IMG/VR virus record: IMGVR_UViG_3300025009_000056 | DNA length: 64,000 nt | DNA from: a virus | Taxonomy: Duplodnaviria > Heunggongvirae > Uroviricota > Caudoviricetes | Direction: 5' to 3' (one strand) | Part shown: positions 6,855-53,909 of the stretch, piece after piece | Layout of the letters: the number at the start of each line of letters is the position of its first letter | Position numbering within the stretch: the stretch's first letter is position 1 | The notes under the pieces: generated by a model | Told to the model about the DNA's origin: nothing | Database searches by the model: none | The model's input: the letters and a program-made list of their open reading frames with translations, nothing else | Program-made: the position numbers and the translations under genes

Positions 6855-6858
6855 CGCA

Positions 6859-7008: not shown

Positions 7009-7032
7009 TATCACATAAATAATGGTATTTAC

Positions 7033-7064
7033 TTGCTTTTACATATAAAATATTCGTATCTTTG
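7033..7064 (+). promoter_or_regulatory. Bacteroidota-type promoter upstream of tnpB
   Basis: TTGC 7033, TATCTTTG 7057-7064. Confidence 0.7.
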
Positions 7065-37249: not shown

Positions 37250-37277
37250 ATTTTCCGTTTTCACTTTTTTAATAAAA

Positions 37278-38783: not shown

Positions 38784-38785
38784 AA

Positions 38786-39370: not shown

Positions 39371-39374
39371 GTTG

Positions 39375-39764
39375 TTATGGTTTTAATCCTCCAATTTGTC
39401 CTCCAGTCGGGACAGGTGGGTCTAGCGTTATATATTTTTGCTCACCACAGGCATTGTAGTTAGTCTGACACATTTTCATCACATAATCAATAGTCCCATC
39501 CGCATTTAATACGGTTACATTTTTAAGATACCCCTTTTGCAACCAATATCCCACATTGTACATACCGCCATCTATCATCTGAGAATCATACATTTTATTT
39601 TCACAATTGCATTTCGCATTTGCAATTGATTGATTAGATACGGCGTTTAAAAAAAGCTCAGGGTTTGAATTTGTTTTCTTTCTCCTACCAAACACAATCC
39701 ACGCAACTACCCCGACTGCGACAATTGGCAATATATATTTTTCGATATTTTTCTCTATCAACAT
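39375..39764 (-). CDS. membrane-anchored protein, FLNA motif
   Basis: N-terminal TM; Cys-containing domain. Confidence 0.7.
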   Translation of the reverse strand: MLIEKNIEKYILPIVAVGVVAWIVFGRRKKTNSNPELFLNAVSNQSIANAKCNCENKMYDSQMIDGGMYNVGYWLQKGYLKNVTVLNADGTIDYVMKMCQTNYNACGEQKYITLDPPVPTGGQIGGLKP

Positions 39765-39773
39765 GTTTTTAAT

Positions 39774-40208
39774 TTATTTCGTAAAAAAGTATATAGCAAT
39801 AACAACAGCCACCCCGCCAATAATCCAGCCTGTATAATTGGTTTTTGTTTTTTCGACAACCACCTCTTCTACAACATCCGCACCCTGCGTTAAAGATGCA
39901 ACAGCACTCGTTTGATGCTGCATTCCGGTAATAAGAGTTTTTTTAAACTTTACTATCGAGCTGTTATTAGCAGGAATATCAATATATGGAATTCCTTGCA
40001 CCTCATTTGGGCAATCTTTATCCGGAGTTGTTCTGACATATTTATTTAAACCATTCCGGATGTTATTCCCCATAATAACATCACCTTTTTTAAATATCAT
40101 GCTATTGGTTAAACTACCCTCTTTATAATAAGCAGTGTAATCGGTTTGAAAAACCGCAGTCACGCAAGGTGAGTATGTTATAGCCGCATGATTAAAAATA
40201 TCGCCCAT
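39774..40208 (-). CDS. C-terminally anchored protein, paralog of 40212..40649
   Basis: FNHA start; A.F..DYTA...GD...G pattern; TM. Confidence 0.7.
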   Translation of the reverse strand: MGDIFNHAAITYSPCVTAVFQTDYTAYYKEGSLTNSMIFKKGDVIMGNNIRNGLNKYVRTTPDKDCPNEVQGIPYIDIPANNSSIVKFKKTLITGMQHQTSAVASLTQGADVVEEVVVEKTKTNYTGWIIGGVAVVIAIYFFTK

Positions 40209-40211
40209 GAT

Positions 40212-40649
40212 TTATTTTTTTAAAATTTTAAAACCAAGAAAGATAGCAATTGCACCGACAACCCACGTTACAGGATTACTCAGCCAGTTTTTAGAACTCG
40301 TTCCATCTTTCTTTATCTCCTGCACATTTCTCATTTCTTGATTAGGTATATGCTCCATCGTGGCTGTGGCTGTGGAATCCAACTGAGAAACACTGACAAT
40401 TGATTCATCATCTGCTGGAATCTGAATAGTTATACCGGATGGGTCTGGGAATACTCCACTCCTTGATGTGGTGAAATATTTTTTCGATTCAATATCTGAT
40501 ATTTTACCAGAAACCATATCTCCCGTATTCCATGAGCCGCTAAATTCTTTACCATCTTTATCTGTGAATGTAGCAGTATAATCAGCTACAAATTTAGCCC
40601 GAGCTGTTATTGGCATTTTGCCGTTTGCGTTATTAAAAAAGTCGTTCAT
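40212..40649 (-). CDS. C-terminally anchored protein, FNNA motif
   Basis: paralog of previous gene. Confidence 0.7.
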   Translation of the reverse strand: MNDFFNNANGKMPITARAKFVADYTATFTDKDGKEFSGSWNTGDMVSGKISDIESKKYFTTSRSGVFPDPSGITIQIPADDESIVSVSQLDSTATATMEHIPNQEMRNVQEIKKDGTSSKNWLSNPVTWVVGAIAIFLGFKILKK

Positions 40650-40661
40650 AATTATTTATTT

Positions 40662-41177
40662 TTAACCGATTAACTCTAACATTTTATACTTGTCATTGAA
40701 TGGAAGTGGAATAGAAATATTCGCTACGCCCACCTTAACCCACATAGTGCCCTTGTATTCCACATCGAGATTTTTTAAATCATTATAGTTCGACGCAAGC
40801 ACACCGAGCATTGGGTTTATTAAGGTAATAGGAGTACTGAAAGAAAGAGTCTGTTTTGTCTTTTCGTTTGGCTTAATAAAAACATTTTCGCGCGATGTTA
40901 TCCACGCCGCTTTTTCACCACCTATATAAACCCACAGTTTTAATTTTGTCATCTCCACGTCGAGATTTCCACGATTATCAATAATAAAGTCGAATGAGCC
41001 GTTCAAACTCTTTGAGCCACCGAATAAAACAGCCCAAAAGTTAATAGACAGATTGTCATACTCGAAATATGTTTTATCATACTCCTTCAGTAATTTATTA
41101 ACTTTGCTGTAAGCCCAAATTCCAGCTGCGGCAAGAGCCGCAACCACCACACTCCATATAATTACACGCTTATTCAT
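40662..41177 (-). CDS. LEA_2/WHy-like domain protein with N-terminal TM
   Basis: IDNRGNLDVEMTKL..VYIGG..IKPNE.. Confidence 0.65.
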   Translation of the reverse strand: MNKRVIIWSVVVAALAAAGIWAYSKVNKLLKEYDKTYFEYDNLSINFWAVLFGGSKSLNGSFDFIIDNRGNLDVEMTKLKLWVYIGGEKAAWITSRENVFIKPNEKTKQTLSFSTPITLINPMLGVLASNYNDLKNLDVEYKGTMWVKVGVANISIPLPFNDKYKMLELIG

Positions 41178-41794
41178 AATGAAACTTTTTTACCCGTTGT
41201 AGTGCTTCTTAAACTATTTCCGCAAACAAATGTTTTCAACCCCTTTTTGAGATTAGTCGCCCAATTCACGATACATATCTTATCCCATTTATAATAAGCC
41301 TGAGCCTGAGTAGCACTCCACTTAAATGTTTCTGTCAGATAACGAAATGCATTTGCATACGCAGCTATTTCAGAAATGGTATAAGTGGATGAACTTACCG
41401 TCTGTGCGGTAATATCCTGACCTTTTGCTATTTTATTATACTCCGTTTCGGAAATATGAGATTTACCATAAATAGCCGAAATAGCTTTTCCGGTATCTGT
41501 TCCCCACTCTCCATCAACATTAAGCGTACTCGATGATGGAAGCTGCTTGTTTAAATACCCCTGAACTATTTTTACGTTAGCATTTTCGCACACGCGATTA
41601 CCATATCCACTACCCTTTGTCAGCGGAAACGTGACGGTACACGATGATGTTGATTGCCCCGTATTTGCGGGAGGCAGTGTGTCTTCGTCGTCTTTTTCAT
41701 CCTTAGCGTCTTTGATAGCTTTAATAACAAAATACGCTCCGGTTCCAATAGCGCCGATAACAACTGTCCATATAATAACTTTACCCCAATTCAT
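41174..41794 (-). CDS. TM-anchored peptidoglycan-binding-like protein
   Basis: FPLTKGS...VKIVQGYL...VDGEWGTDT. Confidence 0.7.
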   Translation of the reverse strand: MNWGKVIIWTVVIGAIGTGAYFVIKAIKDAKDEKDDEDTLPPANTGQSTSSCTVTFPLTKGSGYGNRVCENANVKIVQGYLNKQLPSSSTLNVDGEWGTDTGKAISAIYGKSHISETEYNKIAKGQDITAQTVSSSTYTISEIAAYANAFRYLTETFKWSATQAQAYYKWDKICIVNWATNLKKGLKTFVCGNSLRSTTTGKKVSL

Positions 41795-41798
41795 ATTT

Positions 41799-42038
41799 TT
41801 ATTTATTTTGTGGATTTACTAGAAAACCTTTCATGAAGCTCGGCTTTGCAATCATTAAAACGGCAAGAGTAAGCAGCGTTGCACCTATCACTATTCCGAA
41901 ATAAAACGATGGCTGTAGTCTATAAACGTTTTCAACAGCTCTATATTTAGCAACAGGGTCAAGACTCTCATCCTGAATAATCGTCTCCACCTTGCTTAGT
42001 GCGACCTCTGCTCTTTGTATTTTCTTTTCGTCGTTCAT
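41799..42038 (-). CDS. membrane protein
   Basis: one TM. Confidence 0.65.
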   Translation of the reverse strand: MNDEKKIQRAEVALSKVETIIQDESLDPVAKYRAVENVYRLQPSFYFGIVIGATLLTLAVLMIAKPSFMKGFLVNPQNK

Positions 42039-42048
42039 TATTGCAAAT

Positions 42049-42411
42049 TTAAACAGTTTTTATACCAAGCGATGCAAGCCAATTCAGATAATAATTATAC
42101 ATATCTTCCGTAACCTGCTTTTCTCCAGATTTAGCATATAATGCATCCTGTGTTTCTTTGTTGAATTTTCCAGTTGTTGCAACATTCAGCATGATTTGAA
42201 CATTTGTAACCCTGTTTCCACAACTACCTTTCTTCAATGGGAAATTATCATTACAGGTTGACACGGGGGAGTTATCACTATCCAGTTCAAAACCTTCCTC
42301 AGCCTTTCTGTTTTCCCTGAATTTGTAAATCAAATACCAAGTAGCTCCAGCCGCACCCAAAACAAGCATAGTCCAGACCAACACATTCATTTTTCTTTTC
42401 TGTATAGCCAT
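42049..42411 (-). CDS. TM-anchored peptidoglycan-binding-like protein
   Basis: FPLKKGSCGNRVTNVQ...GKFNKETQDAL. Confidence 0.7.
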   Translation of the reverse strand: MAIQKRKMNVLVWTMLVLGAAGATWYLIYKFRENRKAEEGFELDSDNSPVSTCNDNFPLKKGSCGNRVTNVQIMLNVATTGKFNKETQDALYAKSGEKQVTEDMYNYYLNWLASLGIKTV

Positions 42412-42415
42412 AATA

Positions 42416-42988
42416 TTAATAATTAGGAAGTGATTTCACCATCGAATCCACCCTTGCCAAAAACTCATCCACCTCAACAAATCCACCACCACCTATTTCC
42501 CATCCAAATATATTAATAGATGTCGTAAGAGAATTCGTGATTGTTATAATTTCCGCAAAATAATCTCTCAAACTTTTTCCGTATTTTTTCTGCATAACCT
42601 CGGAAACCTGACTAACCTGAGCCTTACTATCCAACTCGTTTAAGATTGTAATAAACTCCTCGTCTCCATCACCATCATGAGAGTCCTTAAATCTTTGAGC
42701 GTATTTAATAACAGCGGTAGGTTTCAGTAATCGGCTCGAATATTTATCCGGAACTGTTTTATAGAAATTAGGGTCAAACGCATTCGAATCAACAACATCA
42801 TCAGCGCTTCCAGTTAAACCAACATTATTATCAATAGCTTGGTTTATCTTATTCAATAACCTAACTTTTATCGCTCTATTAATAACGAGATATGTAAGTG
42901 TAACCCCAATAATAGCAAAACCTATAATAATCTTATCCCGTCTTGAAAAACGGGAATCAATATTTTTTAAAGTATCTCCAAAAGACAT
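42416..42988 (-). CDS. TM-anchored protein with annexin-repeat-like segment
   Basis: GDGDEEFITILNELDSKAQVSQVSEVMQKKYGKSLRDY. Confidence 0.5.
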   Translation of the reverse strand: MSFGDTLKNIDSRFSRRDKIIIGFAIIGVTLTYLVINRAIKVRLLNKINQAIDNNVGLTGSADDVVDSNAFDPNFYKTVPDKYSSRLLKPTAVIKYAQRFKDSHDGDGDEEFITILNELDSKAQVSQVSEVMQKKYGKSLRDYFAEIITITNSLTTSINIFGWEIGGGGFVEVDEFLARVDSMVKSLPNY

Positions 42989-43003
42989 ATGTTGATTCTC
43001 CTA

Positions 43004-43435
43004 TTATTTTTTAATTCCACGAAGCATCAAAAGTTTCTCCGCTGTTCCTGTTCCACCGCCACCGTTTTTACTCGGCTTTAAAGCCTGATAAACAATAGCA
43101 ACACCAGCAAGTGTTATAACGCCAACAAAAATACCAGCACCAACAACGCCTATTTTAAACACATCACCGATAAAACCAAACACGCTACCAACGCTATCTC
43201 CTAAATCCTCGAGTATATTATCAGCATTAATAACAACGCCCTCATCTTTCATGTATTTACGCAAAGAGCCATCATTGGCTGAGTTACTTTTCCTTTTCTC
43301 CCAACATTTTACCCACGTAGCATTAGCTGTACGCTCTCCAAAATTTCTTTTGAGAGACTTATGCCATTCTATCCACGCTGCGCTTGTGGAGTTCTTGGAT
43401 GGCAATGTTGAAAGTGGATTTATTTTTACGCCCAT
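43004..43435 (-). CDS. C-terminally anchored Trp-rich protein
   Basis: WIEWHK..W..CW; TM. Confidence 0.7.
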   Translation of the reverse strand: MGVKINPLSTLPSKNSTSAAWIEWHKSLKRNFGERTANATWVKCWEKRKSNSANDGSLRKYMKDEGVVINADNILEDLGDSVGSVFGFIGDVFKIGVVGAGIFVGVITLAGVAIVYQALKPSKNGGGGTGTAEKLLMLRGIKK

Positions 43436-43438
43436 ATT

Positions 43439-43771
43439 TTACAGGTGTTTATTGTATTCGTTTAAAATGTTCCCACTGCCTCCGATAAAAGCATTTGTAG
43501 TTGGCGCTGTTTGCTGTGGTGTTTCAACCTGCACATCACCATCGCTTTCAATACCCTCGATATTGGTTGCCTGTAATACCACATTCGAAACCTCTTCATC
43601 GGTTGAATTCGGAAACAATGATTTCAATACATCATGCATCTTGTTCTGAATCTTGTCAACGGTTTCAGCTTCCACCTTCAGGTATTCACCCTTGTATTTT
43701 CCGAGCAGAATATATCTTGCAACAAAAAATCCAACACCAAAAGAAATCGCTATTTTAATAATACTGTCCAT
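43439..43771 (-). CDS. membrane-anchored protein
   Basis: N-terminal TM. Confidence 0.65.
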   Translation of the reverse strand: MDSIIKIAISFGVGFFVARYILLGKYKGEYLKVEAETVDKIQNKMHDVLKSLFPNSTDEEVSNVVLQATNIEGIESDGDVQVETPQQTAPTTNAFIGGSGNILNEYNKHL

Positions 43772-43783
43772 GTTATATATTTT

Positions 43784-43975
43784 TTAATTGTTTTCGATTA
43801 TTTTCGCAGTATAGAAACCACCCAAAGTCAACCCACCAATAACTAAAAGCGTCATTGCTGACTTATTTAATTTCAGCGCATTACCAGCCAATCCAGCTAG
43901 TCCGGCCATAAACAATGTCCCTGACATCATCAGGTAAACCTTTCCGAACTTTTGTTTATTTGTAGTCGTTTCCAT
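43784..43975 (-). CDS. small 2-TM protein
   Basis: two Gly-rich hydrophobic segments. Confidence 0.65.
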   Translation of the reverse strand: METTTNKQKFGKVYLMMSGTLFMAGLAGLAGNALKLNKSAMTLLVIGGLTLGGFYTAKIIENN

Positions 43976-43978
43976 TTC

Positions 43979-44341
43979 TTATTTTTTTACGTTTTCAAAA
44001 ATCTTTTCCATATTATCAATAAACCGCACATCTATCTCTCCCTCTTTTCTACGGTTGTTCATAACACTGGTTCCATCAAAAACCCGTGTAATGATATATC
44101 TTGTTTCCCTGTTATATAAACCGTCTATTGGTAAACTATAACCAAAATGATTAACGATGTTTTTCAATCGGTTTACATCAGCGCCTTTATCTCCTAACTT
44201 AACACCACCATCGGCAAAAGCAAAATACTCGCTGTCGCCATCCTGTTTATTTTCTTTCTTATCTCCGGATAACAACAGTTTTGTTATAGCGAATCCAGCT
44301 ATAACACCAACACCTAATATAATTAAATCTCTTTTATTCAT
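43979..44341 (-). CDS. TM-anchored peptidoglycan-binding-like protein
   Basis: KLGDKGADVNRLK...IDGLYNRET. Confidence 0.65.
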   Translation of the reverse strand: MNKRDLIILGVGVIAGFAITKLLLSGDKKENKQDGDSEYFAFADGGVKLGDKGADVNRLKNIVNHFGYSLPIDGLYNRETRYIITRVFDGTSVMNNRRKEGEIDVRFIDNMEKIFENVKK

Positions 44342-44910
44342 TACATTATTAATCTTCCGGTATATCCGTATTTAAGATACTGCTGATATTTTTCATCAGC
44401 CTCTTTTTTTTTCATTTCCTCATCAACAAAATTACGATACTCACTGTTTTTCTTTTCGTTTGAATAATTGAATTGAATAACGAGTGTAACCGTTGTGTTT
44501 TTGTCAACCATGTAATCTAAAAATCTTTTTCCACCAACCCTGATAGGTTTACGCAAATTCATTTCAGCGATAGTATTATCCTTTTGTTGTGCAGACATAT
44601 AACTTTCTACACTTATATTCTTTGCGGCCTCCGTTCCTGTCGATGACTGAAAGCGTTCTCTGAAAGAGTAACGAGCCTGACTTGGGTTTCCAGCGAATAT
44701 CACCTTCATGCTATGTATCTTTATCTCATTGGTATAAATATCCGATAAAATATAACTATAACCAACACCACCCGTATCTACTACCTCCACACAATCCATC
44801 ACAGATGGCGCACAAGCATAAGACAATCCTTTAAAAAGACTGACATTAAGAGGGTAACTCTTATTGTTTACTAGTTGTAATGTTATTGTATGCATGTTTT
44901 GACTCATCAC
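44341..44910 (-). CDS. paralog of candidate capsid domain (minor capsid protein?)
   Basis: LQLVN..VSLF..TNEIKIHSMKV..Q..STG..YMSAQ aligns by eye to 53241..53909. Confidence 0.6.
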   Translation of the reverse strand: MMSQNMHTITLQLVNNKSYPLNVSLFKGLSYACAPSVMDCVEVVDTGGVGYSYILSDIYTNEIKIHSMKVIFAGNPSQARYSFRERFQSSTGTEAAKNISVESYMSAQQKDNTIAEMNLRKPIRVGGKRFLDYMVDKNTTVTLVIQFNYSNEKKNSEYRNFVDEEMKKKEADEKYQQYLKYGYTGRLIM

Positions 44911-44940
44911 TCTTTCAGATTAACTCTTTTTAATAATTGA

Positions 44941-45051
44941 TTACGCTTTACCCCACCAGCCTTTGTTTTTTCCTAAGAAATAACCGCCTACACCGATAAC
45001 GGCCAAGCCGCCGATAATTAAAGCCCATTTTGTTCCACTTGACATTTTCAT
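44941..45051 (-). CDS. micro membrane protein
   Basis: 36 aa, WALIIGGLAVIGVGGYFL then KNK. Confidence 0.6.
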   Translation of the reverse strand: MKMSSGTKWALIIGGLAVIGVGGYFLGKNKGWWGKA

Positions 45052-45070
45052 GATTTTATTTTTTAAATTA

Positions 45071-45262
45071 TTACTTACGTTTCTTTGATTTCGATTTTGA
45101 TTTCGGCTTGGGGTTTTCCGGAAAATCATACTGAATGCCATCTTTATCTTTATAAACAATCTCACCACCACGTGCCTTGATTTTTTTGATATGGCTTTTC
45201 ATTGCCTTTGGACTTGAATGTTCTTTTTCATACAAATCACTTCTGTCTTTCGTCTTGCTCAT
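45071..45262 (-). CDS. small highly basic protein
   Basis: KPKSKSKSKKRK tail; module shared with 23993..24355. Confidence 0.7.
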   Translation of the reverse strand: MSKTKDRSDLYEKEHSSPKAMKSHIKKIKARGGEIVYKDKDGIQYDFPENPKPKSKSKSKKRK

Positions 45263-45296
45263 TTTTGCTGATTTTTAATTGTTGTCTTTTTATTTT

Positions 45297-45572
45297 TTAT
45301 ACCTGTGCAGAGGTTTCGTTTTTCGCCTCTTTGATTATTTTATTTACAAATGGAGTGGCTATTAAATTCGCCGGAATTCCAAAAATAAGTCCACCAAGAA
45401 TCCAATATCCTACACCTCGCCAGAATCCACCACCAGTTCTTTTGCTATAAATAACTCCAACTATAGAGCCAACCAATGCAACGCTACCAGAAATCGCCTT
45501 AATATTGGCAACCCTTGCAGCTTGGTTAGTGTTTAACGCTTTTTGCTCCTCTTCGCTTAAAAATACATTCAT
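45297..45572 (-). CDS. small 2-TM protein
   Basis: two Gly-rich hydrophobic segments. Confidence 0.65.
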   Translation of the reverse strand: MNVFLSEEEQKALNTNQAARVANIKAISGSVALVGSIVGVIYSKRTGGGFWRGVGYWILGGLIFGIPANLIATPFVNKIIKEAKNETSAQV

Positions 45573-45580
45573 GGCGCTAT

Positions 45581-45925
45581 TTATATTTTAGTTACATCTG
45601 ACTTTTTTACAAACAGACCATCACAGTCTATTTTCCAATACTCACCGTTTTCATCCATTACAGAAACTTTTGTTCCGTTTGCTAGCGTTGTGTTCATTTT
45701 CTGCATAACACCACCTTGACCCATTATAAAAATAGGAACTGCATCATATCGTGCTACCGCGTAAAAATACGGAATGCGAACACCGTTTTCACCGTACTGC
45801 GGCTCACCAAGTTTTTCATCCTCTTTCGGTGTTACAGTCGTATTATCGTCCTTGTCAATAAATAATTTATAAACAACAACGAGTGCGATAGCTCCTAATA
45901 ATATCCATTTACCAGTTTTTTCCAT
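45581..45925 (-). CDS. TM-anchored SH3b-like protein
   Basis: LANGTKVSVMDENGEYWKI..GLFVKK. Confidence 0.55.
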   Translation of the reverse strand: MEKTGKWILLGAIALVVVYKLFIDKDDNTTVTPKEDEKLGEPQYGENGVRIPYFYAVARYDAVPIFIMGQGGVMQKMNTTLANGTKVSVMDENGEYWKIDCDGLFVKKSDVTKI

Positions 45926-45930
45926 AATTA

Positions 45931-47562
45931 TTATTTTTCTTCCTCAAATCCGTTTTCAACAAATGTAACCATTTCTTTCATCAATCCCTCTCTACTCATC
46001 TGTTTGTAATAAACAGTGAAATAAATAGTATTTGCGGGCAGAATATCCATTTTGAAATAATTATCCTTACTAAATACAATCGGCTTGTCAAGATGAATAT
46101 CCAAAACAGTATTATCACCATCTGTTGCAAATCTACTGGCAAGAGATGAGTAATAAAAACTCCTTACGGCTCCATACGGGGTGCTATAATAAAGCGTTAT
46201 CGGCTTATCAAACTGAGCTGGATTAGTACACATCAGCTTTATTTCTGTTATGATTATCGGCTGAGTAATAATATCAGTTACAAACTGACTATATGTAACA
46301 GTTCTAACGGTTGACCCAGTGTAACGGATATTGGAGATATACGCATATTGCCAAATACCAAAACCATAAACACAGGTATATAAAATATTTCTTTGAGCAT
46401 CTTTATAAAAAGCGTTTATTTGATTAGATGGTAGTTGACTCCCATGCGCAGCACCCGATGAGGTGTTATATGTTTTACCTGTATCGGTAGTTGTATTGTA
46501 TTCCCATAATCCAAGTCCAGAACCAGCGTATAAAAAACCATCAACCTCGTCTTTAAAAACAAACAATATCGCGTCTGCTGGGACTTGACTTCCATTCCCA
46601 GCACCACCTAGCGTGTTATATATTTTACCAAAATCCATCGCAACATCCAACTCCCATAATCCGGCAGAGGTAGCTGCGTAAAACATGTTATTTACTATAT
46701 CTTTATAGATGGATACAACATTATTATCCGGCAACTGCAAGCCAGCACTAACACCTCCCGCCGTATTGTATACACTTCCTGTATCAGTTCCAACATCATA
46801 TCTCCATACACCACCACCAAGTGTTCCAGCATAAAGAATGTCGTTTTGATAATCCTTAAAAACACAAAAAACCCAATCGTTTGGCAATTGCAATCCAGAG
46901 CCAGCACCACCCGCATTAGTATATTGCTTTCCTGTATCTGTATTCACATTGTACTCCCAAACACAGCCAGTAAGTCCAGAGCACGAGGCATATAATACAT
47001 TATTAACCTCATCCTTATAAACACCAGACACGCTGTCTGCTCTTATTTGTTGCCCAAAGCCAGCCCCTCCAATAGTATTATATATCTTACCCGTCCTTGT
47101 AGACACATTATATTCCCAAACACCAGCACCTGTTGCTACATAAAGAATATTATTTGTGCTATCCTTGTATATGGAAAAACTATCAATAGATGGAATTTGA
47201 GAACCGAAATCAGCGCCACTCGTAGTATTATAAACCTTACCAACTCTTGTGGTAAAATTATATTCCCAGACACCAGCGTCCGTAGTTCCAATATACAATA
47301 TATTATTTAAAACATCTTTATAAGCACAAGTAGTAGAGTTGCTAGGTAGTGGGGCAATTTGTCCGGAAGCAGTATTATAAATAAGACCCCTATCCATAGA
47401 AGCTGTGTATGTGCCTCCCAACAATTTCTCGACATTAAAAATCTCAGCGGTAACAGTTTCGTAAGGATTATCATTTACAAGTTCGGCAACATATGAACCT
47501 CGCTTACTAAGTAAGTTTGCCTTTTTCGCCATCAACTCCAATGTCTCTTTATCTCTTACCAT
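45931..47562 (-). CDS. candidate capsid-domain paralog with inserted 7-bladed beta-propeller
   Basis: seven YKD..N.LY..T..GVW.Y repeats between N- and C-terminal halves of the shared domain. Confidence 0.7.
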   Translation of the reverse strand: MVRDKETLELMAKKANLLSKRGSYVAELVNDNPYETVTAEIFNVEKLLGGTYTASMDRGLIYNTASGQIAPLPSNSTTCAYKDVLNNILYIGTTDAGVWEYNFTTRVGKVYNTTSGADFGSQIPSIDSFSIYKDSTNNILYVATGAGVWEYNVSTRTGKIYNTIGGAGFGQQIRADSVSGVYKDEVNNVLYASCSGLTGCVWEYNVNTDTGKQYTNAGGAGSGLQLPNDWVFCVFKDYQNDILYAGTLGGGVWRYDVGTDTGSVYNTAGGVSAGLQLPDNNVVSIYKDIVNNMFYAATSAGLWELDVAMDFGKIYNTLGGAGNGSQVPADAILFVFKDEVDGFLYAGSGLGLWEYNTTTDTGKTYNTSSGAAHGSQLPSNQINAFYKDAQRNILYTCVYGFGIWQYAYISNIRYTGSTVRTVTYSQFVTDIITQPIIITEIKLMCTNPAQFDKPITLYYSTPYGAVRSFYYSSLASRFATDGDNTVLDIHLDKPIVFSKDNYFKMDILPANTIYFTVYYKQMSREGLMKEMVTFVENGFEEEK

Positions 47563-47566
47563 AATA

Positions 47567-48394
47567 TTAAAATATCGAATTGTTTACAGCATTTCCATTA
47601 TTGAAATTCTCAAAATACTGCTGTTTTGAATTTCGTTTTTCAAGATTGTTTTCTTTCAGATATTGGTCAATATAATTCAGCCTATCCACATTAGTGTCTG
47701 TATCCCCAAAGATATTGGTGAAAGCATACATTGCCTCCACGTAAGAATATCTTAAAGGCATATAAAGCGACAATGCGTTTAAATCTGCCTGAGTTTCATT
47801 ATCTCTTTCGTCATTCAGAAAGTTATGACAATACTCATGCAGATTGATAATGTGACGCATAGGTACAGTCATTGCATCGTAGCTAGGCTTATGAACCTCT
47901 ATATAATCCAATAATTTATGCGTTCTTGCCGGAGTGGGTACAATATTTCCATCCTCATCCAGCAATCTATCTTTCATTGTTATCAAAAACTGTTTCTTTC
48001 GGTCTGTGTAATCATTGAGTGACTTACACCCACATACCTTACTGAAATTTTCCGAAAATAAAACAAAATCTTTAGTCAGCTTATCTGTAATAAGTGGAAA
48101 TTGTTTTAAATCAGTCGTAACAATAGACGATACTTTATAAAAACTATCATCATTCTCATCCTTTGGGTTAAAGATAAGAATTTCGAGTTCTTTCGGACTC
48201 GTTGGCATGTTAAAAACAAACTGATTGTCGCCTTTGTCAAGAAACAATTCTCTCCGAAAATAATCAGAGTTTATAATATTGGGATTAGCATCATATCCAA
48301 TTACGAGTAATCGTCTACCACCATAACCCGAATAAATATTTACAGTTATCTGTTTTCTTTTATTCCTAGTAACTACCTTCAGCACCGTTGCCAT
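47567..48394 (-). CDS. HExxH zinc metalloprotease
   Basis: INLHEYCHNF...NETQAD; start moved to MATVLK. Confidence 0.75.
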   Translation of the reverse strand: MATVLKVVTRNKRKQITVNIYSGYGGRRLLVIGYDANPNIINSDYFRRELFLDKGDNQFVFNMPTSPKELEILIFNPKDENDDSFYKVSSIVTTDLKQFPLITDKLTKDFVLFSENFSKVCGCKSLNDYTDRKKQFLITMKDRLLDEDGNIVPTPARTHKLLDYIEVHKPSYDAMTVPMRHIINLHEYCHNFLNDERDNETQADLNALSLYMPLRYSYVEAMYAFTNIFGDTDTNVDRLNYIDQYLKENNLEKRNSKQQYFENFNNGNAVNNSIF

Positions 48395-48605
48395 TTGGGG
48401 AAGCCTTTCCTTTTTTACTGACGAAATAGTAAAGGGCATACGCTGCAACCCCTACTAATGCTATCAGACCGATTGTTTTCAACTTCTTTTTATTATTAGA
48501 GGGTACTACTGATGATACAGAACCATCAGTTGCACTCTCCGTTGTTTGGTTTTTCAAACCTTGCTGTTCCGCGTATTGCTTTGCTTTTTCGATTGTTACA
48601 GGCAT
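48366..48605 (-). CDS. C-terminally anchored protein
   Basis: TM then KKGK; promoter box 48631-48638. Confidence 0.65.
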   Translation of the reverse strand: MPVTIEKAKQYAEQQGLKNQTTESATDGSVSSVVPSNNKKKLKTIGLIALVGVAAYALYYFVSKKGKASPNGNGAEGSY

Positions 48606-48665
48606 GTTTTCTTAGTTTTAATTATATATGCAAAATTATGAAAATACGAGCCTGATTGCAAGTTT

Positions 48666-49328
48666 TTATTTTGACACAGCATCACTTTTTTTCGTCGCTA
48701 AAACAGCTAGCGTAATCAACACAACACCTGCACCAATTGCAATCCACCAACCAGTTCCCATTGACTTATCCTCGGGAGGAATACCACTAAAACTATTGTT
48801 TGCATTTGCAGCTGCACCACCACCAAATATCGAAGCTAATCCGGAAACAGAATCAAGTATGGATGATAAACCACTTTGGCTCATGCATTTTTTATATCCA
48901 TCATAATCATTTGGATACCTAGCTCTACATTTATCCATTTTCGAACTCGCCGAGGTCTTACCATCACACTGTCCCATCAACTTTTTAAACCAGTTACAAT
49001 CAGATGTAGCGGATGTAGAACCACTGCCTGTGTACGAGCTTACTGGCAAATCCTCAACACTACCAGTATCTAACTGTGTGTCATCGTAGGGGTTGGCATT
49101 ATAAAACGAGCCAATACTATTACGATACCTAAAAGCACCAACAGTCATTGGTATTCTGTTTGAGCGAATTCTTCCTCTATCCTCACAGCTTGGGCAATAA
49201 CGTGGCTGGATATTAGAAACAGCATTGCTGTAAGAGCTTCCCATCGTATCCTGACTGTAAGAGGCAATCATATCCTGATTACCTAATCCACCCAAATCAA
49301 CGGCTGTAGTTGTTATATAATTATTCAT
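48666..49328 (-). CDS. C-terminally anchored protein, YSNA and FYNA motifs
   Basis: low-complexity Ser/Gly, Cys pairs, TM. Confidence 0.7.
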   Translation of the reverse strand: MNNYITTTAVDLGGLGNQDMIASYSQDTMGSSYSNAVSNIQPRYCPSCEDRGRIRSNRIPMTVGAFRYRNSIGSFYNANPYDDTQLDTGSVEDLPVSSYTGSGSTSATSDCNWFKKLMGQCDGKTSASSKMDKCRARYPNDYDGYKKCMSQSGLSSILDSVSGLASIFGGGAAANANNSFSGIPPEDKSMGTGWWIAIGAGVVLITLAVLATKKSDAVSK

Positions 49329-49786
49329 TTTTTTATTTTTTTCTTTTTATCAAAAACACCAAATCCAGCAAGGGTAACGAGTCCGATAACAATCCATAAT
49401 ATTGTTTTTCCTGTGCGATACCGTCTCAAAGCAGCCTCGTCAACATATTCCTCTGTAACCTCTTCTGCCGCCTCATCACTCCAACCACCACCAAAACCGC
49501 CACCAGACACCATTGGCTCAATATATCTATGTTCAACAGCGGGTATGTTACCCGATACATCAGGCCGAGTAGTATTACCAATAGTGGGGATAGTTACAGT
49601 TGTAACCGTTGGTCTGGTAGTCGATATGTTCGGCCTGATTACTGGACGAGTAGCGGTATTTGTCGCAATTACAGGACTCGTATTAGATGTAGGTCTAGTA
49701 GCGTAAATACCACCACGAACTACATCCGAGTCAGATATAATAGGGACAACTCTACTTGTGTCGATTAATCCATTAAACATTTCCAT
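49325..49786 (-). CDS. C-terminally anchored Thr/Pro-rich protein
   Basis: TRP repeats, TM, KKKKIKK tail. Confidence 0.7.
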   Translation of the reverse strand: MEMFNGLIDTSRVVPIISDSDVVRGGIYATRPTSNTSPVIATNTATRPVIRPNISTTRPTVTTVTIPTIGNTTRPDVSGNIPAVEHRYIEPMVSGGGFGGGWSDEAAEEVTEEYVDEAALRRYRTGKTILWIVIGLVTLAGFGVFDKKKKIKK

Positions 49787-49796
49787 ATGGAAAAAA

Positions 49797-50261
49797 TTAA
49801 ATTATAGAACCGCCAGCTGATGCAATTTTCCCACCACTAGGAACACATCTGCATGTAACTCCATCAATATATCCAGAATATCTTCTTCCACCCTGTTGAT
49901 ATGTGCAACGTCCACCAGCCTCGGGACATGGTACTACGACTGCGTTAAAAAAAGGCTGACGTTCAGCGCCTTTATGCGCCCATTTGTCAGGCCACAAATC
50001 ACCACGATAATGCGCACCAGCATCATAATTACCAGAAGCATCGTTAAAAACAGATGCATTCAACCATGATGATGGAAATATTCTTGCATCCCTACCGGAA
50101 ACAACATCAGAATATTCATCGGCTTCCTCATCCTCAAATTCCTCTGTGGCTGATTTCATTGCTTTTTCTTTAGCAATTGATTTCTGGTATTTTTTGTAAA
50201 AATAAACACCTACGATGGCAGCGCCAGCAATCATAATCAAATTTTTCGTACTCTTTTTCAT
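49797..50261 (-). CDS. membrane-anchored protein, FFNA motif
   Basis: N-terminal TM; small Cys domain at C-terminus. Confidence 0.7.
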   Translation of the reverse strand: MKKSTKNLIMIAGAAIVGVYFYKKYQKSIAKEKAMKSATEEFEDEEADEYSDVVSGRDARIFPSSWLNASVFNDASGNYDAGAHYRGDLWPDKWAHKGAERQPFFNAVVVPCPEAGGRCTYQQGGRRYSGYIDGVTCRCVPSGGKIASAGGSII

Positions 50262-50273
50262 CTCGATTGATTT

Positions 50274-50540
50274 TTATTTGTTATTATTTTCGTCTTCTTT
50301 TTTAGCGTTTCCTAATTCGTCTCTTAATTCAGTTTTCAACTCACCCTTTACTTCCTCTTTTATTTCTGATTTCATTTTACTCTCATCAATTGGAGTAGGA
50401 CTAGGAGCGGCAGCGGCAAGATTGTTTTCAAGTCCTAAGGGTTGCTCTTCAGCTTTTTTGTTTTTACTTTCATGATATGCATCACTAATCAAAAAACCAA
50501 AAACTCCACCCAGTATTATCGGAATTATTTTTTCTAGCAT
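50274..50540 (-). CDS. membrane-anchored acidic protein
   Basis: N-terminal TM. Confidence 0.65.
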   Translation of the reverse strand: MLEKIIPIILGGVFGFLISDAYHESKNKKAEEQPLGLENNLAAAAPSPTPIDESKMKSEIKEEVKGELKTELRDELGNAKKEDENNNK

Positions 50541-50542
50541 AA

Positions 50543-51430
50543 CTATTGTTTTTTTACGATTGAACGAATGAGTAAAAATCCACCAACTAACGCAACGCCT
50601 ATAAAAGCGTATTTAACAATGGATGAACCAGAAACAGATGATGCCAACCCATCATTACCACCAGTACTAGAACCAGCACGTGCAGCTTGCGCTACAGTAG
50701 ATTCATTTGCGGTCTCAGATGTAGAAGTTGTTTCACCACTACTATTCACAGATGTTCCAACCTCAAGCGTTACACCATCCCAAAGTTTTGAATATTTTTT
50801 TTCAACATAATTTTTACAGTTTCTTCTCTGCGCTCTACCGTCAATTGTGTCACAGCAATTAATGGCTTTTGTTTTCAAATATTCTGTTTCAATCTTTGAG
50901 AGCGTTCCTTTTTTATCATCTTTTTTAAATCGCTGATATGTTACAGGAACTATCCCATTAATGTTTAAAGCTCCATTTTCCACATAAACATCATTATCTC
51001 TTCCTCCCTGACTATGACCCTTTGTAGAATCGAGTTTTGCGCCATAAGAGATAACATCCGGATAGAATCTGGTTAGATTAACAACTGAGTGTACACTTGT
51101 TTCTACCACTCCATTCGTATAAGAACTGTCTTTTTTCGCAGTGGGGCTATTGACTAAAAATGGAGTGTTTAAGACAATACTCCCTTTTCTACTGCCGGAT
51201 GGATTTATAACCTGTGTAACCTTGAAATTACCCAAATAAACATCCCCAGTAACACTAGCAATATTTCCAACTAAAAAACGAGAAACATCGTCAACGCTTA
51301 CACGTATTGTTTTAAAAGAGCTATCGCCAGCTATTATCCAAGATGAGTTCTGATTTGAGTCTGGAACAAAATTATTAAACCCGCCGCAGGCAGCGCAAAA
51401 ACCATTATATTTATCTGTAAGGAAATTCAT
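50543..51430 (-). CDS. C-terminally anchored protein
   Basis: TM then KKQ. Confidence 0.7.
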   Translation of the reverse strand: MNFLTDKYNGFCAACGGFNNFVPDSNQNSSWIIAGDSSFKTIRVSVDDVSRFLVGNIASVTGDVYLGNFKVTQVINPSGSRKGSIVLNTPFLVNSPTAKKDSSYTNGVVETSVHSVVNLTRFYPDVISYGAKLDSTKGHSQGGRDNDVYVENGALNINGIVPVTYQRFKKDDKKGTLSKIETEYLKTKAINCCDTIDGRAQRRNCKNYVEKKYSKLWDGVTLEVGTSVNSSGETTSTSETANESTVAQAARAGSSTGGNDGLASSVSGSSIVKYAFIGVALVGGFLLIRSIVKKQ

Positions 51431-51432
51431 AA

Positions 51433-51807
51433 TTAAACCCCCTGAGTTTTTGTTTTTTTCGATTTTACCAACATCAAATAACCAACAGCAAATACGCCTA
51501 ATACTGCTAATCCAGCGATAACATATAGTGCTACAGGCATCTTTTTCGATGCAGATGATTCAGAGCTTTGCAAAAGCTCAAGCAGGGATGATTGATATTG
51601 TGCATTAGCAGCCTCTCTTGCATACTTAGCCTCTTGCTCCTTTGCTTTCTCGTCTTTACACTTTTGAGTCAAGCATAAACCAAATAAACCAGCATTATGG
51701 TAATTTCCTGAATTTTCATCCAGAATTATAGCGGGTTTACTCACAATCGGATAACCGAGAATTGCGGTATTCACGCTGTCTATATTATTTTTGTCCAGTA
51801 TTTCCAT
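51433..51807 (-). CDS. C-terminally anchored protein, YHNA motif
   Basis: TM then KSKKTK. Confidence 0.7.
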   Translation of the reverse strand: MEILDKNNIDSVNTAILGYPIVSKPAIILDENSGNYHNAGLFGLCLTQKCKDEKAKEQEAKYAREAANAQYQSSLLELLQSSESSASKKMPVALYVIAGLAVLGVFAVGYLMLVKSKKTKTQGV

Positions 51808-51817
51808 TTTTATTTAT

Positions 51818-52315
51818 TTACTTGTTCTTTTTTCTCTTGATAAGAATAGCGGCTCCGATGACAAGAGCAAGCGCAACGAGAGAGCCGACAACAAGCCATG
51901 TGGCAGTTTTGGTTCCGGTTGATGCATTAGCCTCTCTTGCTGCAATCAGATTCAGTAATTGATTTTCCCTGTCAGCACTTTGCTGCGCCTCTATATTTTG
52001 AGACTCCTGTCTTGCACCCATCCATCCGAAAACATTGCTTACGGCAGCGCCAACAGCGGTTGCAATTGTACCAGCAGCATTAGAATAACTTCCTCCCGCA
52101 TTTACAAATCCAGCCCTTGATAAAAGCTCTGAAAATTCAGCCACAAAATCCGGTCTTGTTTCAAGCGCATTGTTTAAGACACTTACTATGTCAGCCGTAT
52201 CCATTTTATCATTGATAATATACCCGTAGCGCTGAAGCATGGATATAACCTCCAACTTATTGCTGACGTAAGTATCGGCTATTGCCCTTAGTAATGATTG
52301 TTTATTTACTACCAT
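51818..52315 (-). CDS. C-terminally anchored protein, FVNA and YSNA motifs
   Basis: start moved to MVVNKQ; TM then KRKKNK. Confidence 0.7.
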   Translation of the reverse strand: MVVNKQSLLRAIADTYVSNKLEVISMLQRYGYIINDKMDTADIVSVLNNALETRPDFVAEFSELLSRAGFVNAGGSYSNAAGTIATAVGAAVSNVFGWMGARQESQNIEAQQSADRENQLLNLIAAREANASTGTKTATWLVVGSLVALALVIGAAILIKRKKNK

Positions 52316-52319
52316 ATAA

Positions 52320-52511
52320 TTAAAGTATTGACTCGCCAGTAAAAGATGATGTTCTTGCCACGTTTCCACCCTTAGTCATTTGGGTCTGAGAAAGAACGGG
52401 TTTGTTTGATATTGCCGATTTACCTTTATTCGGTTTACCTCTTAAAACAAAATAACCAACAACACCGATTGCTGTTATTCCACCAAATATTAAAATGTTT
52501 TTCCAATTCAT
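52320..52511 (-). CDS. small membrane protein
   Basis: N-terminal TM. Confidence 0.65.
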   Translation of the reverse strand: MNWKNILIFGGITAIGVVGYFVLRGKPNKGKSAISNKPVLSQTQMTKGGNVARTSSFTGESIL

Positions 52512-52517
52512 GATTTT

Positions 52518-52760
52518 CTATTTAGTAATTTTAAAAAGCAGAAAAACTACAGCTAAAATTAATGACATTTTGAATGCCCCACTTATGAAGTTTTTCTTTT
52601 TCTCATCATAATCATTACCTATAACCTCTGCACTATTTTTCCGAGCATCTACGTCGATTTCATCATTGTTATCAACAGCGTCTACATCATCAACAGCGTT
52701 TAAAAATGTGTTACCGTTGCAACAATTATTAAATTTTGATTTAGGTGAAAGAAATTCCAT
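52518..52760 (-). CDS. small C-anchored protein, FLNA motif
   Basis: TM at C-terminus. Confidence 0.65.
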   Translation of the reverse strand: MEFLSPKSKFNNCCNGNTFLNAVDDVDAVDNNDEIDVDARKNSAEVIGNDYDEKKKNFISGAFKMSLILAVVFLLFKITK

Positions 52761-52762
52761 AG

Positions 52763-53161
52763 CTATTTTAAAATTAAATATATAATCGCACCTACCGCTA
52801 CATACGCAAGCATTTTGCGTGTTTTCTTAATCTCGGACTCGAGAATTTCAACCCTGTTTTCACTTGTGGTGTTTTGAGTAATATTGGGATTTTCAACATT
52901 TGTTGAACCACCCATATTACTATCACCGTAAAAATTTCTGAATATCTTTATGTCTGGATGTTCTAAAACAACATCTCTGAGAAATTCATCTCCGTGTTGT
53001 TCATGAAGCATAACTCCAGCATCTATAACCTCGTGAATATCATGAGGCTCCCAACTGCCAACACAACCGTATTTTGCGAGAATTTTATTCATTCCCACAG
53101 GGTTGTAATATGCAACTCTCGAAATAAAATTATACAATTGCTCCTCGTTCATATCCGGCAT
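52763..53161 (-). CDS. C-terminally anchored helical protein
   Basis: NPVGMNKILAKYG weakly resembles NKLEVISMLQRYG of 51818 gene. Confidence 0.65.
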   Translation of the reverse strand: MPDMNEEQLYNFISRVAYYNPVGMNKILAKYGCVGSWEPHDIHEVIDAGVMLHEQHGDEFLRDVVLEHPDIKIFRNFYGDSNMGGSTNVENPNITQNTTSENRVEILESEIKKTRKMLAYVAVGAIIYLILK

Positions 53162-53184
53162 ATTATGTTACAAACTACACTAAG

Positions 53185-53220
53185 AAAAAAAGGGCAGGCA
53201 AGTTAGACTTACCTGCCCTT
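53185..53220 (-). terminator. strong intrinsic terminator after candidate MCP
   Basis: AGGGCAGG/CCTGCCCT stem then T run. Confidence 0.85.
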
Positions 53221-53240
53221 CGCGTATGGTTCGCTAAAGA

Positions 53241-53909
53241 TTAGCGAGTAACATTCATTGCCTGATTAGCGTAGAGGTCAATCTGCGGCAGTCCTGTAGG
53301 AGCTGTCGAGGTGGCAACTTCGCGGATAGCATTACCAGTCAACAGGTTGGTGGTATTGGTTCTTTCGCTCAGGTTGAAGATGATAGTTACGTTTTCAGAT
53401 GCATTTACTGTAAACTGAACGTAAGTGTCAAGGTCAACTACGAGTTCAAAACCAGTAGCATCTACCTGAGTGGTCAGGTTGTTCTGAGCTGAACGATAGT
53501 TAATCGGCTGGAACATTTTTCTCTGTTGGAAACCAGTAGAGTTGGAACGGAAAATCGACCAAGTGTTCGAGAACTGATTAACATTAGTAGCAGTCATTTT
53601 CAGACCATAAATTCTGAACGGGTTGGTCAGCAATTCGGTTTTCACCTGCTGGTGGCTCGATTCAAGAACGTTAACGGTCAGACCTGCGGGAAGCAGAGCA
53701 TCGGTAAGGTCACGGGCAGAACCAAACAAAGTAACAACAGCAGCAGTGGCAGTGTCACTGTTGATGATATTAAAGGTCAGGGTTCTGTCGTTAGGGTCAA
53801 GTGTGCTTGCGTAAGCTACATTAGATGCAACAGGGGCTACACCTGTAGCGTTATTAAACATGGGCGCTCCACCCTGATACTGTGCAATTCGATTTTTGTA
53901 TGAGTTCAT
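53241..53909 (-). CDS. candidate major capsid protein (single jelly-roll-like)
   Basis: beta-strand-rich ~140-aa core; AAC/TTC/CTG/ACC-biased codons; own promoter, SD-like AGGAG and terminator; next to packaging-type ATPase; fold is inferred. Confidence 0.6.
   Translation of the reverse strand: MNSYKNRIAQYQGGAPMFNNATGVAPVASNVAYASTLDPNDRTLTFNIINSDTATAAVVTLFGSARDLTDALLPAGLTVNVLESSHQQVKTELLTNPFRIYGLKMTATNVNQFSNTWSIFRSNSTGFQQRKMFQPINYRSAQNNLTTQVDATGFELVVDLDTYVQFTVNASENVTIIFNLSERTNTTNLLTGNAIREVATSTAPTGLPQIDLYANQAMNVTR

Follow-up and report, generated by a model that had tools for sequence, protein, structure and literature searches.

A short [FY]-x-N-[A/F/Y/M] motif shared by a jelly-roll protein and tail-anchored membrane proteins in an uncatalogued group of metagenomic phages, and an M48-like zincin as its candidate reader

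Virion maturation at short consensus sites is known from adenovirus AVP ((M/I/L)XGX↓G, where the arrow marks the cut), T4 gp21 (LxE↓) and the phiKZ-like phages (S/A/G-x-E↓). The phage locus described here, which lies in a window of 64,000 nucleotides, resembles these systems in that one short motif occurs in many unrelated internal or membrane-side virion proteins, a candidate protease gene is located in the same module, and the motifs are placed near termini or domain borders. However, the enzymes of the known systems are cysteine or serine proteases with proven cleavage, whereas the candidate here is an M48-like zincin and cleavage is putative; moreover, the bearers in this phage are tail-anchored membrane proteins and the motif is centred on an Asn. 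A precedent for a shared N-terminal tag that is cut in several structural proteins is that of phage 80alpha, whose capsid and scaffolding proteins are cleaved by the host protease Prp at a common N-terminal F↓A motif, also present in ribosomal protein L27; 13-14 N-terminal residues are removed and the same tag is found on other structural proteins of related phages (PMC5744158). Both phages have a short tag common to non-homologous structural proteins, but 80alpha is tailed and its reader is a host cysteine protease, whereas the candidate reader here is encoded by the phage, and a genome has up to about ten tagged proteins, with the tag at 3-40 residues from the start or deeper. The gene order, viz., a packaging-type ATPase, a candidate jelly-roll capsid gene, small membrane-protein genes and then lysins, is similar to that of PRD1- and PM2-like phages. 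However, membership of these groups is not established because the contig is 196 kb long, has tail-fibre-like genes and yielded only a single jelly-roll protein. To our knowledge, no shared peptide motif, virion protease or sorting motif has been described for PRD1- or PM2-like phages.

The strict form of the motif, [FY]xNA, occurs 12 times between positions 39375 and 53909 of the window (29 ORFs, 4640 amino acids) as against 2.0 expected, and the highest count in 5000 shuffles of this span is 8, whereas the remainder of the window has two copies as against 5.8 expected. The initial annotation had listed ten exact copies and put the chance expectation at one or two; all ten are found in the ORFs it named, all on the minus strand, and the computed values bear out its estimate. 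FTNA in the ORF at 16..414 and the near-matches FNHA, FNDA, WLNA, FNNF and FENF are likewise all present, and two further strict copies are YANA and YTNA in the ORFs beginning at 41174 and 45931, respectively. Some equally enriched motif appears in 16% of shuffled sets when all motifs built like [FY]xNA (about 756,000) are allowed, and the window count by itself is therefore not decisive; what decides is conservation and the repeated enrichment in relatives. The codons of the motif differ between copies (AAT or AAC for Asn and all four GCN codons for Ala), which places the signal at the protein level.

In the genes extending from the jelly-roll gene to the zincin gene, pooled over seven genomes, 41 copies are present as against 8.5 expected (z 10.8, the related loci in the pooled counts being statistically non-independent), whereas genes upstream in the same genomes have 13 as against 17.4 expected, and scrambled and neighbouring control patterns show no enrichment in the seven genomes. 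Five held-out loci, taken in after the motif pattern was fixed, hold 18 copies as against 4.9 expected, a count exceeded by none of 1000 shuffles. The loci enriched in their own counts include L001, L002, L004, L007, L010 and L018; enrichment in its own count is weak for L008 and absent for L014. The conservation in homologues by which the motif was to be judged is seen in the jelly-roll arm, where [FY]xN[AFMY] occupies the position of the window's FNNA wherever the arm aligns (42 homologue clusters), most relatives having a second copy about 12 residues downstream, and in four pairs of orthologues between the window and the relative L006, whose linkers have diverged but keep the motif within them, with F and Y exchanged in places. 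We conclude that [FY]-x-N-[A/F/Y/M] is a real short linear motif, conserved throughout a group of metagenomic phages not yet catalogued, and that it is confined to the jelly-roll arm and to the non-membrane parts of small, mostly C-tail-anchored proteins encoded directly after the jelly-roll protein. The group is widespread, with 799 zincin representatives at 50% identity and 42 jelly-roll protein clusters; as searched here, IMG/VR and the deposited-phage collection gave no match to it.

The usual bearer has the order tag, spacer and C-terminal membrane helix with a basic tail, and the motif commonly lies 3-11 residues from Met1, though some copies are located in C-terminal tails. In the span, where the bearers named below are all encoded on the minus strand, the 222-aa single-jelly-roll protein (53241..53909) has FNNA at residues 18-21 (nt 53847..53858) of its N-terminal arm. 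In the 132-aa tail-anchored protein (52763..53161), a helical domain meets a linker at FRNF (residue 74; nt 52931..52942), and its positional orthologues have FHNF, FRNF, YKNA, FKNA, YRNA or YLNF at residues 66-103. This siting, together with the copies close to Met1, agrees with the earlier description of motifs at domain borders or near N-termini. In the 80-aa tail-anchored protein (52518..52760), FLNA at residue 19 (nt 52695..52706) comes after FNNC and a Cys-Cys pair, and the L006 orthologue has FNNA and YANA at aligned positions. The tail-anchored protein at 51818..52369 carries FVNA (nt 52097..52108) and YSNA (nt 52076..52087) with a spacing of seven residues, numbered 88 and 95 from the GTG start or 70 and 77 from the ATG at 52315; the latter is probably the true start, and the L006 orthologue, which has YVNA and YKNA at aligned positions, starts in alignment with Met19 of the window protein. 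The 124-aa tail-anchored protein (51433..51807) has YHNA at residue 36 (nt 51691..51702), and a distant L008 counterpart retains G-N-R-N-A-G-F-F. FNNF at residue 18 (nt 51368..51379) of the 295-aa tail-anchored protein (50543..51430) follows C-A-A-C-G-G, and the L006 orthologue has YNNA and then FNNF. The 154-aa protein at 49797..50261, which has an N-terminal membrane helix, carries a degenerate FNDA (nt 50037..50048) in addition to WLNA (nt 50055..50066) and FFNA at residue 104 (nt 49941..49952), with FNNA and YFNA at aligned positions of its L006 orthologue. YSNA at residue 33 (nt 49221..49232) and FYNA at residue 75 (nt 49095..49106) are found in the 220-aa tail-anchored protein (48666..49328), and FLNA at residue 38 (nt 39642..39653) in a 129-aa protein with an N-terminal membrane helix (39375..39764). 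In the 145-aa tail-anchored protein (40212..40649), FNNA is at residue 5 (nt 40626..40637) and is followed by N-G; relatives have about 25 small proteins with such a tag beside Met1. YANA at residue 146 (nt 41348..41359) of a 206-aa protein (41174..41794) may be a chance copy, and YTNA at residue 214 (nt 46912..46923) of the 543-aa propeller protein with Reg_prop repeats (45931..47562), which falls inside a propeller repeat unit, is probably non-functional.

The extended consensus is [NG]-[FY]-x-N-[AFY]-x-G-[DE], in which Asn is the sole invariant polar residue of the motif, and Gly two residues past the motif, a position outside the search pattern, is present in 20 of 51 instances (5.7-fold enriched). 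The fourth residue tracks lineage, being Ala in the window and Phe, Tyr or Met elsewhere, with ratios of Ala to Phe/Tyr/Met of 7:3 in the window, 7:1 in L006, 1:7 in L004 and 0:4 in L007. From this joint shift in many proteins of one genome we infer one common reader, and all motif copies are probably read by a single partner. Overlapping triplet repeats, such as F-N-N-Y-D-N-Y-S-N-F in L004 and F-S-N-F-F-N-A in L001, and pairs of motifs spaced 7-9 residues apart are also observed.

An AlphaFold2 model of the 222-aa protein (42 sequences; pLDDT 76) has a jelly roll over residues 34-190 and a disordered arm at residues 15-31 (pLDDT <50). The flexibility originally ascribed to the motif-bearing segments is thus supported by the model for this arm, while for the other bearers it is suggested by their terminal positions and Gly/Ser/Asn-rich flanks. 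Weak fold matches found with VIA (Z 5-6) are a comovirus coat protein, PR772 P31 and the FLiP major capsid protein (MCP), and the assignment of the 222-aa protein as MCP is unproven. Directly upstream of its gene lies that of a 287-aa P-loop ATPase (Zot or FtsK-HerA-like; 54247..55110, minus strand), a context marker for the morphogenesis module, whose Pfam Zot match (E 3.3e-4) is weak and barely past the family cut-off and whose positional homologues have weak DUF87 matches. The module has more than 20 ORFs with one predicted membrane helix, and the phage, which is uncultured, probably contains a membrane. No double jelly-roll protein was identified, a 638-aa neighbour being uninformative.

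The candidate reader (47567..48394, minus strand) is a 275-aa protein with an N-terminal beta-sandwich and an M48-like zincin domain, in which HEYCH spans residues 186-190 and is followed by E200 and D204. Like the M48 gluzincins BepA, HtpX and Ste24, it has HExxH and a Glu on the next helix. Membrane or envelope proteins are the targets of M48 enzymes. Unlike in M48, the Glu is only 10 residues past the second His, the domain is fused to an N-terminal jelly-roll/CBM-like sandwich, and the protein is without membrane helices. H186, E187, H190, E200, D204 and R238 are invariant in 107 sequences; among the 799 homologue representatives, HExxH is present in 150 of 150 and ExxxD in 146 of 150 inspected. 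Residues 105-255 of the AlphaFold2 model (pLDDT 91.7) match E. coli BepA (6sar_A) with a VIA Z of 8.0, which is in the moderate range, over 121 aligned residues at an rmsd of 4.4, and the M48 structure 3c37 (3c37_B) with Z 6.9. No match was found for the protein in Pfam, Peptidase_M48 included, or in a PDB profile search, and the family has marginal SprT-like, PhageMetallopep and M78 matches, in one member each. Based on the model and the invariant HExxH...ExxxD residues, we confidently predict an M48-like zincin, in keeping with the earlier nomination of this gene as the candidate protease. The zincin gene is syntenic in each of the nine loci that extend to it, and its product has FENF in its own disordered C-terminal tail (nt 47603..47614). 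Its N-terminal sandwich resembles penton and CBM domains, and the zincin may therefore be a vertex enzyme used at entry. Co-folding of the zincin with Zn and arm residues 1-45 gave an ipSAE of 0.50 as against 0.30 for the best control, which the prediction tool rates as weak support and at which its predictions are wrong more often than right, and no zincin residues track the preference for A or F beyond what phylogeny explains.

As a mechanism, we propose that the common partner is this zincin, which would recognize the tag and cut at or beside the motif, for example at Asn↓Ala or Asn↓Phe, so that P1' would be hydrophobic, in line with the usual preference of zincins. Such cutting, during particle maturation, would remove short N-terminal leaders, the arm of the capsid protein, or soluble domains from their anchors, and the tag may earlier bring the proteins into the assembling particle. 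We give recognition and cutting by the zincin a little less than an even chance. Counting against cleavage, some copies begin at residue 3-5, where almost no P-side is left for a protease, and zincin specificity does not usually involve an Asn that is strictly invariant; by their arrangement, the overlapping triplets and close pairs look more like sites for avidity binding than for cleavage. Alternatively, the motif could be a docking or sorting tag that is not cut. As a hook placed where membrane-anchored tethers have their free end or a domain border, it would plug into a pocket of a capsid or assembly protein, the same one that the jelly-roll arm uses. In this way the shell would be linked to the membrane, and phage-encoded proteins would be chosen for the virion membrane. 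The disorder of the arm, the usual bearer order, the many copies at the extreme N-terminus or in C-terminal tails, the avidity suggested by tandem and overlapping copies and the fit of a genome-wide fourth-residue shift to a single pocket all speak for such a hook, which, however, leaves the conserved zincin of the module unexplained; we consider it slightly less probable than cutting. No documented consensus motif for docking is known to us from membrane-containing phages. The initial reading as a lineage-specific protease site or docking motif thus holds for a conserved lineage-wide motif on virion-module proteins with, probably, a single reader, while cleavage and docking are candidate roles. 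It is also conceivable, though unlikely, that the two act in succession, the tag being a cargo-sorting signal that lets a coat or assembly protein gather phage-encoded tail-anchored proteins and the capsid arm before the zincin trims the tags. The signal would then correspond, in a prokaryotic virus, to tyrosine-based adaptor signals and would serve the membrane patch from which the internal membrane of the virion forms.

Two other explanations appear far less probable. Modification of the Asn by a phage glycosyltransferase, for example at a non-canonical N-glycosylation sequon, would account for its being the only invariant polar residue, and the ORF at 55097..55855, two genes upstream from that of the jelly-roll protein, encodes a GT-A-fold glycosyltransferase with a D-D-D-D motif (ESM Atlas structure, TM 0.74); chloroviruses glycosylate capsid Asn at atypical sequons. 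However, of nine genomes, the window and L006 alone have this transferase, its positional counterparts in the seven other relatives are unrelated (12-16% identity), the motif is enriched in several of these seven (L001, L002, L004, L007, L010 and L018), and Ser or Thr two residues past the Asn is seen in 13 of 51 instances, short of a sequon. Very improbable as well, and already largely refuted by the present analysis, is the absence of any shared reader, the excess of copies then being due to chance or composition, or left over from the common descent of duplicated small genes. The equally enriched window shuffles, the statistical dependence of related loci and the paralogy of some bearers, such as two L010 proteins with a common N-terminal leader, would fit this. 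Yet enrichment recurs in the held-out loci while control patterns and flanking genes are flat, the motif persists where flanking sequence has diverged, its codons differ, the unselected Gly is enriched, and relic paralogy would not shift the fourth residue in concert.

A conserved tag of about eight residues together with a candidate reader enzyme makes two questions on internal-membrane phages testable, viz., how they choose the proteins of their virion membrane and whether proteolysis is part of particle maturation. The tag and the zincin could also serve as markers for finding this virus group. If true, cargo sorting by the tag would provide a first defined rule by which the membrane proteome of an internal-membrane phage is selected.

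All copies of the [FY]xNA motif listed in the initial annotation were reproduced by translating the cited minus-strand ORFs. In a crude, non-overlapping ORF set, the 29 ORFs (4640 aa) within 39375..53909 contain 12 copies against 2.0 expected, with a maximum of 8 in 5000 per-protein shuffles; to the ten copies already listed, the span adds YANA (41174 ORF) and YTNA, the latter in a propeller repeat of the 45931 ORF. The window's remaining 80 ORFs contain 2 copies against 5.8 expected. The codons of the motif vary (AAT or AAC, and all four GCN), and hence it is not a repeat at the DNA level. When approximately 756,000 motifs of the same form (three fixed positions within 3-4 residues, with two residues at one position) were considered, some motif was at least equally enriched in 16% of 300 shuffled sets and, since [FY]xNA was also picked after looking, its enrichment in the window alone is suggestive and not significant. 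Only G.WE and WEY outscore it, both of which come from the internal repeats of a 543-aa propeller protein. This protein (45931..47562, minus strand), encoded directly after an M48-like zincin, has about seven Reg_prop-type propeller repeats (G-V-W-E-Y-N) and a C-terminal beta-rich domain; relatives have Kelch or NHL propellers at similar places, and it may be a vertex spike.

Homologues of the 222-aa jelly-roll protein (53241..53909, minus strand), the candidate major capsid protein (MCP) of the initial annotation, form 42 clusters in metagenomes, and the contig carrying the window's own copy is 195,945 bp long. In the alignment of these clusters, [FY]xN[FAMY] is present at the position of the window's FNNA (residues 18-21) wherever the N-terminal arm aligns, the arm being otherwise poorly conserved, and in most relatives the motif recurs, as Y-[MR]-N-A-[VA]-G, about 12 residues farther along. 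The metagenomic loci L001, L002 and L004-L007, and later L008, L010, L011, L014 and L018, share a common gene order, viz., ATPase, tiny membrane ORF, jelly-roll protein, a protein of about 135 aa, small ORFs, the HExxH protein (the zincin), small ORFs and lysins. One relative, L002, carries an IS605 OrfB/TnpB-type gene (5875..7059) as an insertion in the group of genes that lies upstream of its ATPase. In orthologue pairs of the window and L006 the motif persists at aligned positions although the linkers around it have diverged; Phe and Tyr replace each other, and the second residue varies freely.

Upon pooling the window with six loci, the wider form [FY]xN[AFYM] was found 41 times against 8.5 expected in the genes between the jelly-roll and HExxH proteins (9150 aa; z 10.8, 0 of 200 shuffles), whereas it is not enriched in the upstream genes (19.5 k aa; 13 observed, 17.4 expected) or in the genes after the HExxH protein (12.8 k aa; 18 observed, 13.6 expected). 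Three of four control patterns were flat in the seven pooled genomes (Asn replaced by Gln/Asp/Ser, the aromatic residue by Leu/Ile, and one reordered pattern), and the fourth, the reversed pattern, was mildly raised (16 against 8.1). Five further loci, fetched once the pattern had been fixed, contain 18 copies against 4.9 expected in the same genes (0 of 1000 shuffles) and show no excess in their upstream genes (7 against 6.5); L014 has no enrichment and the distant L008 only a weak excess. As the loci are related, the pooled and later-fetched figures represent conservation and not independent events. On these sequence counts, chance or composition is excluded as the source of the excess.

The consensus from 51 instances is [NG]-[FY]-x-N-[AFY]-[VS]-G-[DE], in which the Gly two residues past the motif, a position outside the search pattern, is present in 20 of the 51 (5.7-fold over background). 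The fourth residue tracks lineage: the counts of Ala against Phe/Tyr/Met are 7 and 3 in the window, 7 and 1 in L006, 1 and 7 in L004, 0 and 4 in L007, and 0 and 3 in L005, and the position is mixed or Ala-rich in L001, L002, L010 and L018. The motif is conserved and limited to a single set of genes, across which the fourth residue changes together.

Most of the motif-bearing proteins are small and have just one membrane helix, at the C-terminus and with Lys/Arg after it, and genes farther downstream, with N-terminal helices, mostly do not have the motif. In about 25 proteins it begins 3-11 residues past Met1, for example M-x(3-7)-[KR]-Y-R-N-A; in others it is located where a helical N-terminal domain gives way to the linker that leads to the membrane helix, and occasionally in a C-terminal tail. 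Copies also occur in pairs 7-9 residues apart, often beside Cys-Cys, C-x-C or C-G-G, and as overlapping triplets. In two families of orthologues, such Cys clusters immediately adjoin the motif (window 52722..52733 and 51380..51397; L006 11201..11458; L007 11134..11493; L018 6255..6464); they could be metal-binding, disulfide or lipid-attachment sites. In the tail-anchored proteins (window 38124..53161, minus strand, and equivalents in L001-L018), the membrane helix is followed by a short Lys/Arg run such as K-R-K-K-N-K; if the N-terminal part of these proteins faces the capsid, the basic tails would face the DNA-filled lumen. Two neighbouring genes of L010 (12857..13285 and 13460..13735) encode a near-identical leader of about 12 residues, M-A-S-I-V-G-[ED]-[KR]-Y-x-N-A, which ends with the motif and after which the proteins are unrelated; judging by this shared leader, the tag seems to travel as a unit.

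As modelled by AF2 (pLDDT 76), the 222-aa protein has a short helix at its N-terminus and a jelly roll of eight strands; the motif lies in the segment that separates the two, residues 15-31, which is the only one below pLDDT 50. The fold of the jelly roll resembles comovirus coat domains, PR772 P31 and the FLiP MCP at Z 5-6, which is consistent, if weakly, with a capsid protein; in a Foldseek search with the model, no PDB entry reached E 0.001. The putative ATPase (54247..55110, minus strand) is Zot-like (E 3.3e-4), its search against the PDB being uninformative, and together with the jelly-roll protein and the more than 20 single-helix membrane proteins of the module it would fit the module of an internal-membrane virus. 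No double jelly-roll protein was identified in the module, most of whose proteins received no name in PHROG and Pfam scans, and the ESM Atlas was uninformative for two neighbours, of 255 aa and 638 aa. Tail-fibre-like genes lie close to the module. Two paralogues of about 450 aa (26449..27828 and 31806..33152, minus strand) match PHROG 5302 'tail protein' (E about 1e-97) and a 1375-aa ORF (33170..37297) matches tail-spike and virion structural PHROGs; these tail-type matches sit oddly with a tailless internal-membrane particle.

We infer one common reader for all copies of the motif, for which the candidate is the 275-aa zincin (47567..48394, minus strand). Its ATG start agrees with its homologues, and it keeps its place in the gene order in all loci long enough to reach it. 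A profile search retrieved 799 representatives with an E-value of at most 0.001, of which 311 have one of at most 1e-30; HExxH is present in all 150 of the representatives listed, followed by ExxxD in 146, and H186, E187, H190, E200, D204 and R238 are invariant in an alignment of 107 sequences (25% mean column identity). The AF2 model (pLDDT 91.7) has a beta-sandwich (residues 1-95) and then an alpha/beta domain containing the HExxH helix and a next helix that bears E200 and D204. The structure of residues 105-255 resembles that of E. coli BepA, an M48 protein (Z 8.0, 121 aligned, rmsd 4.4), and also 3c37, likewise of M48 (Z 6.9); for the sandwich, the matches are CBMs (Z 8.5) and jelly rolls of viruses, among them the STIV penton protein (Z 7.2). 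Foldseek found few PDB matches to the model, mainly over the sandwich, a profile search of the alignment against the PDB was empty, and sequence profiles gave no placement in a Pfam family. The invariant HExxH/ExxxD residues and fold matches, together with this want of a Pfam placement, make this protein of the virion module a credible, putatively active zincin that belongs to a new subfamily. The tag at the zincin's own C-terminus, present in 8 of 150 representatives, is not characteristic of the family. Residues 190-194 read H-N-F-[LIV]-N, an aromatic-x-Asn directly after HExxH, and H-I-[FY] in the Phe-preferring clade of L004, L007 and L011; this His-Asn to His-Ile change, the only one found to track the Ala/Phe preference, is confounded by phylogeny, and the aromatic-x-Asn is probably a coincidence.

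Motifs shared among virion proteins are protease sites in adenovirus, T4 and phiKZ, and this precedent counts towards cleavage at the motif with the zincin as the enzyme, the reading that we tentatively prefer. A shared motif in virion proteins is likewise a protease site in 80alpha, where the protease is Prp (PMC5744158). The conservation of the zincin also counts for cleavage, as does a weak co-fold pass, and the hydrophobic fourth residue would fit a P1' pocket of the zincin. The co-fold of zincin, Zn and capsid arm residues 1-45 gave an ipSAE of 0.50 (runs 0.50, 0.17 and 0.50) against 0.30 for the best control. Of 80 solved complexes 58 attain the pass mark, as do 2 of 110 mismatches, and among passes at 0.60 or below the wrong ones outnumber the right ones; at least 36% of contacts agree between runs, the partner pLDDT is at least 41, and the score came without a reported interface. 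The tandem and overlapping copies, the tags just 2-4 residues from Met1 and the layout of hook, spacer and membrane anchor point instead to docking only, a serious contender that we hold somewhat less probable and under which the zincin could be a vertex enzyme. Docking and cleavage can coexist, the tag first targeting the protein, which is then trimmed.

Self-cleavage at Asn, in the manner of nodavirus and tetravirus coat proteins, is unlikely because the motif lies in disordered parts of many unrelated proteins. Modification of the motif, for example as a glycosylation sequon, was prompted by a GT-A glycosyltransferase gene (55097..55855, minus strand), but is most improbable given that only the window and L006 carry this gene, its positional counterparts in seven relatives being unrelated. 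The 252-aa product has a GT2-like GT-A fold (by its ESM Atlas structure, TM 0.74) with a Y-L-D-D-D-D motif, and the gene is located between the 638-aa ORF and the packaging-type ATPase. That the copies have no shared reader at all is hardly to be expected, and what is left of the odds falls to something else.

DNA and protein searches of the deposited-phage collection INPHARED found no relative, nor did a scan of IMG/VR for the jelly-roll protein. Since these catalogues are without a relative while metagenome protein sets hold the 42 clusters and 799 zincin representatives, this group of viruses appears to escape the usual pipelines for virus detection. A literature search found no description of the group or of the motif. 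A consensus tag common to virion proteins is a known kind of feature; the [FY]xN[AFYM] motif, the confinement of the tag to tail-anchored membrane proteins and the M48-like zincin that is its candidate reader are novel forms of it.
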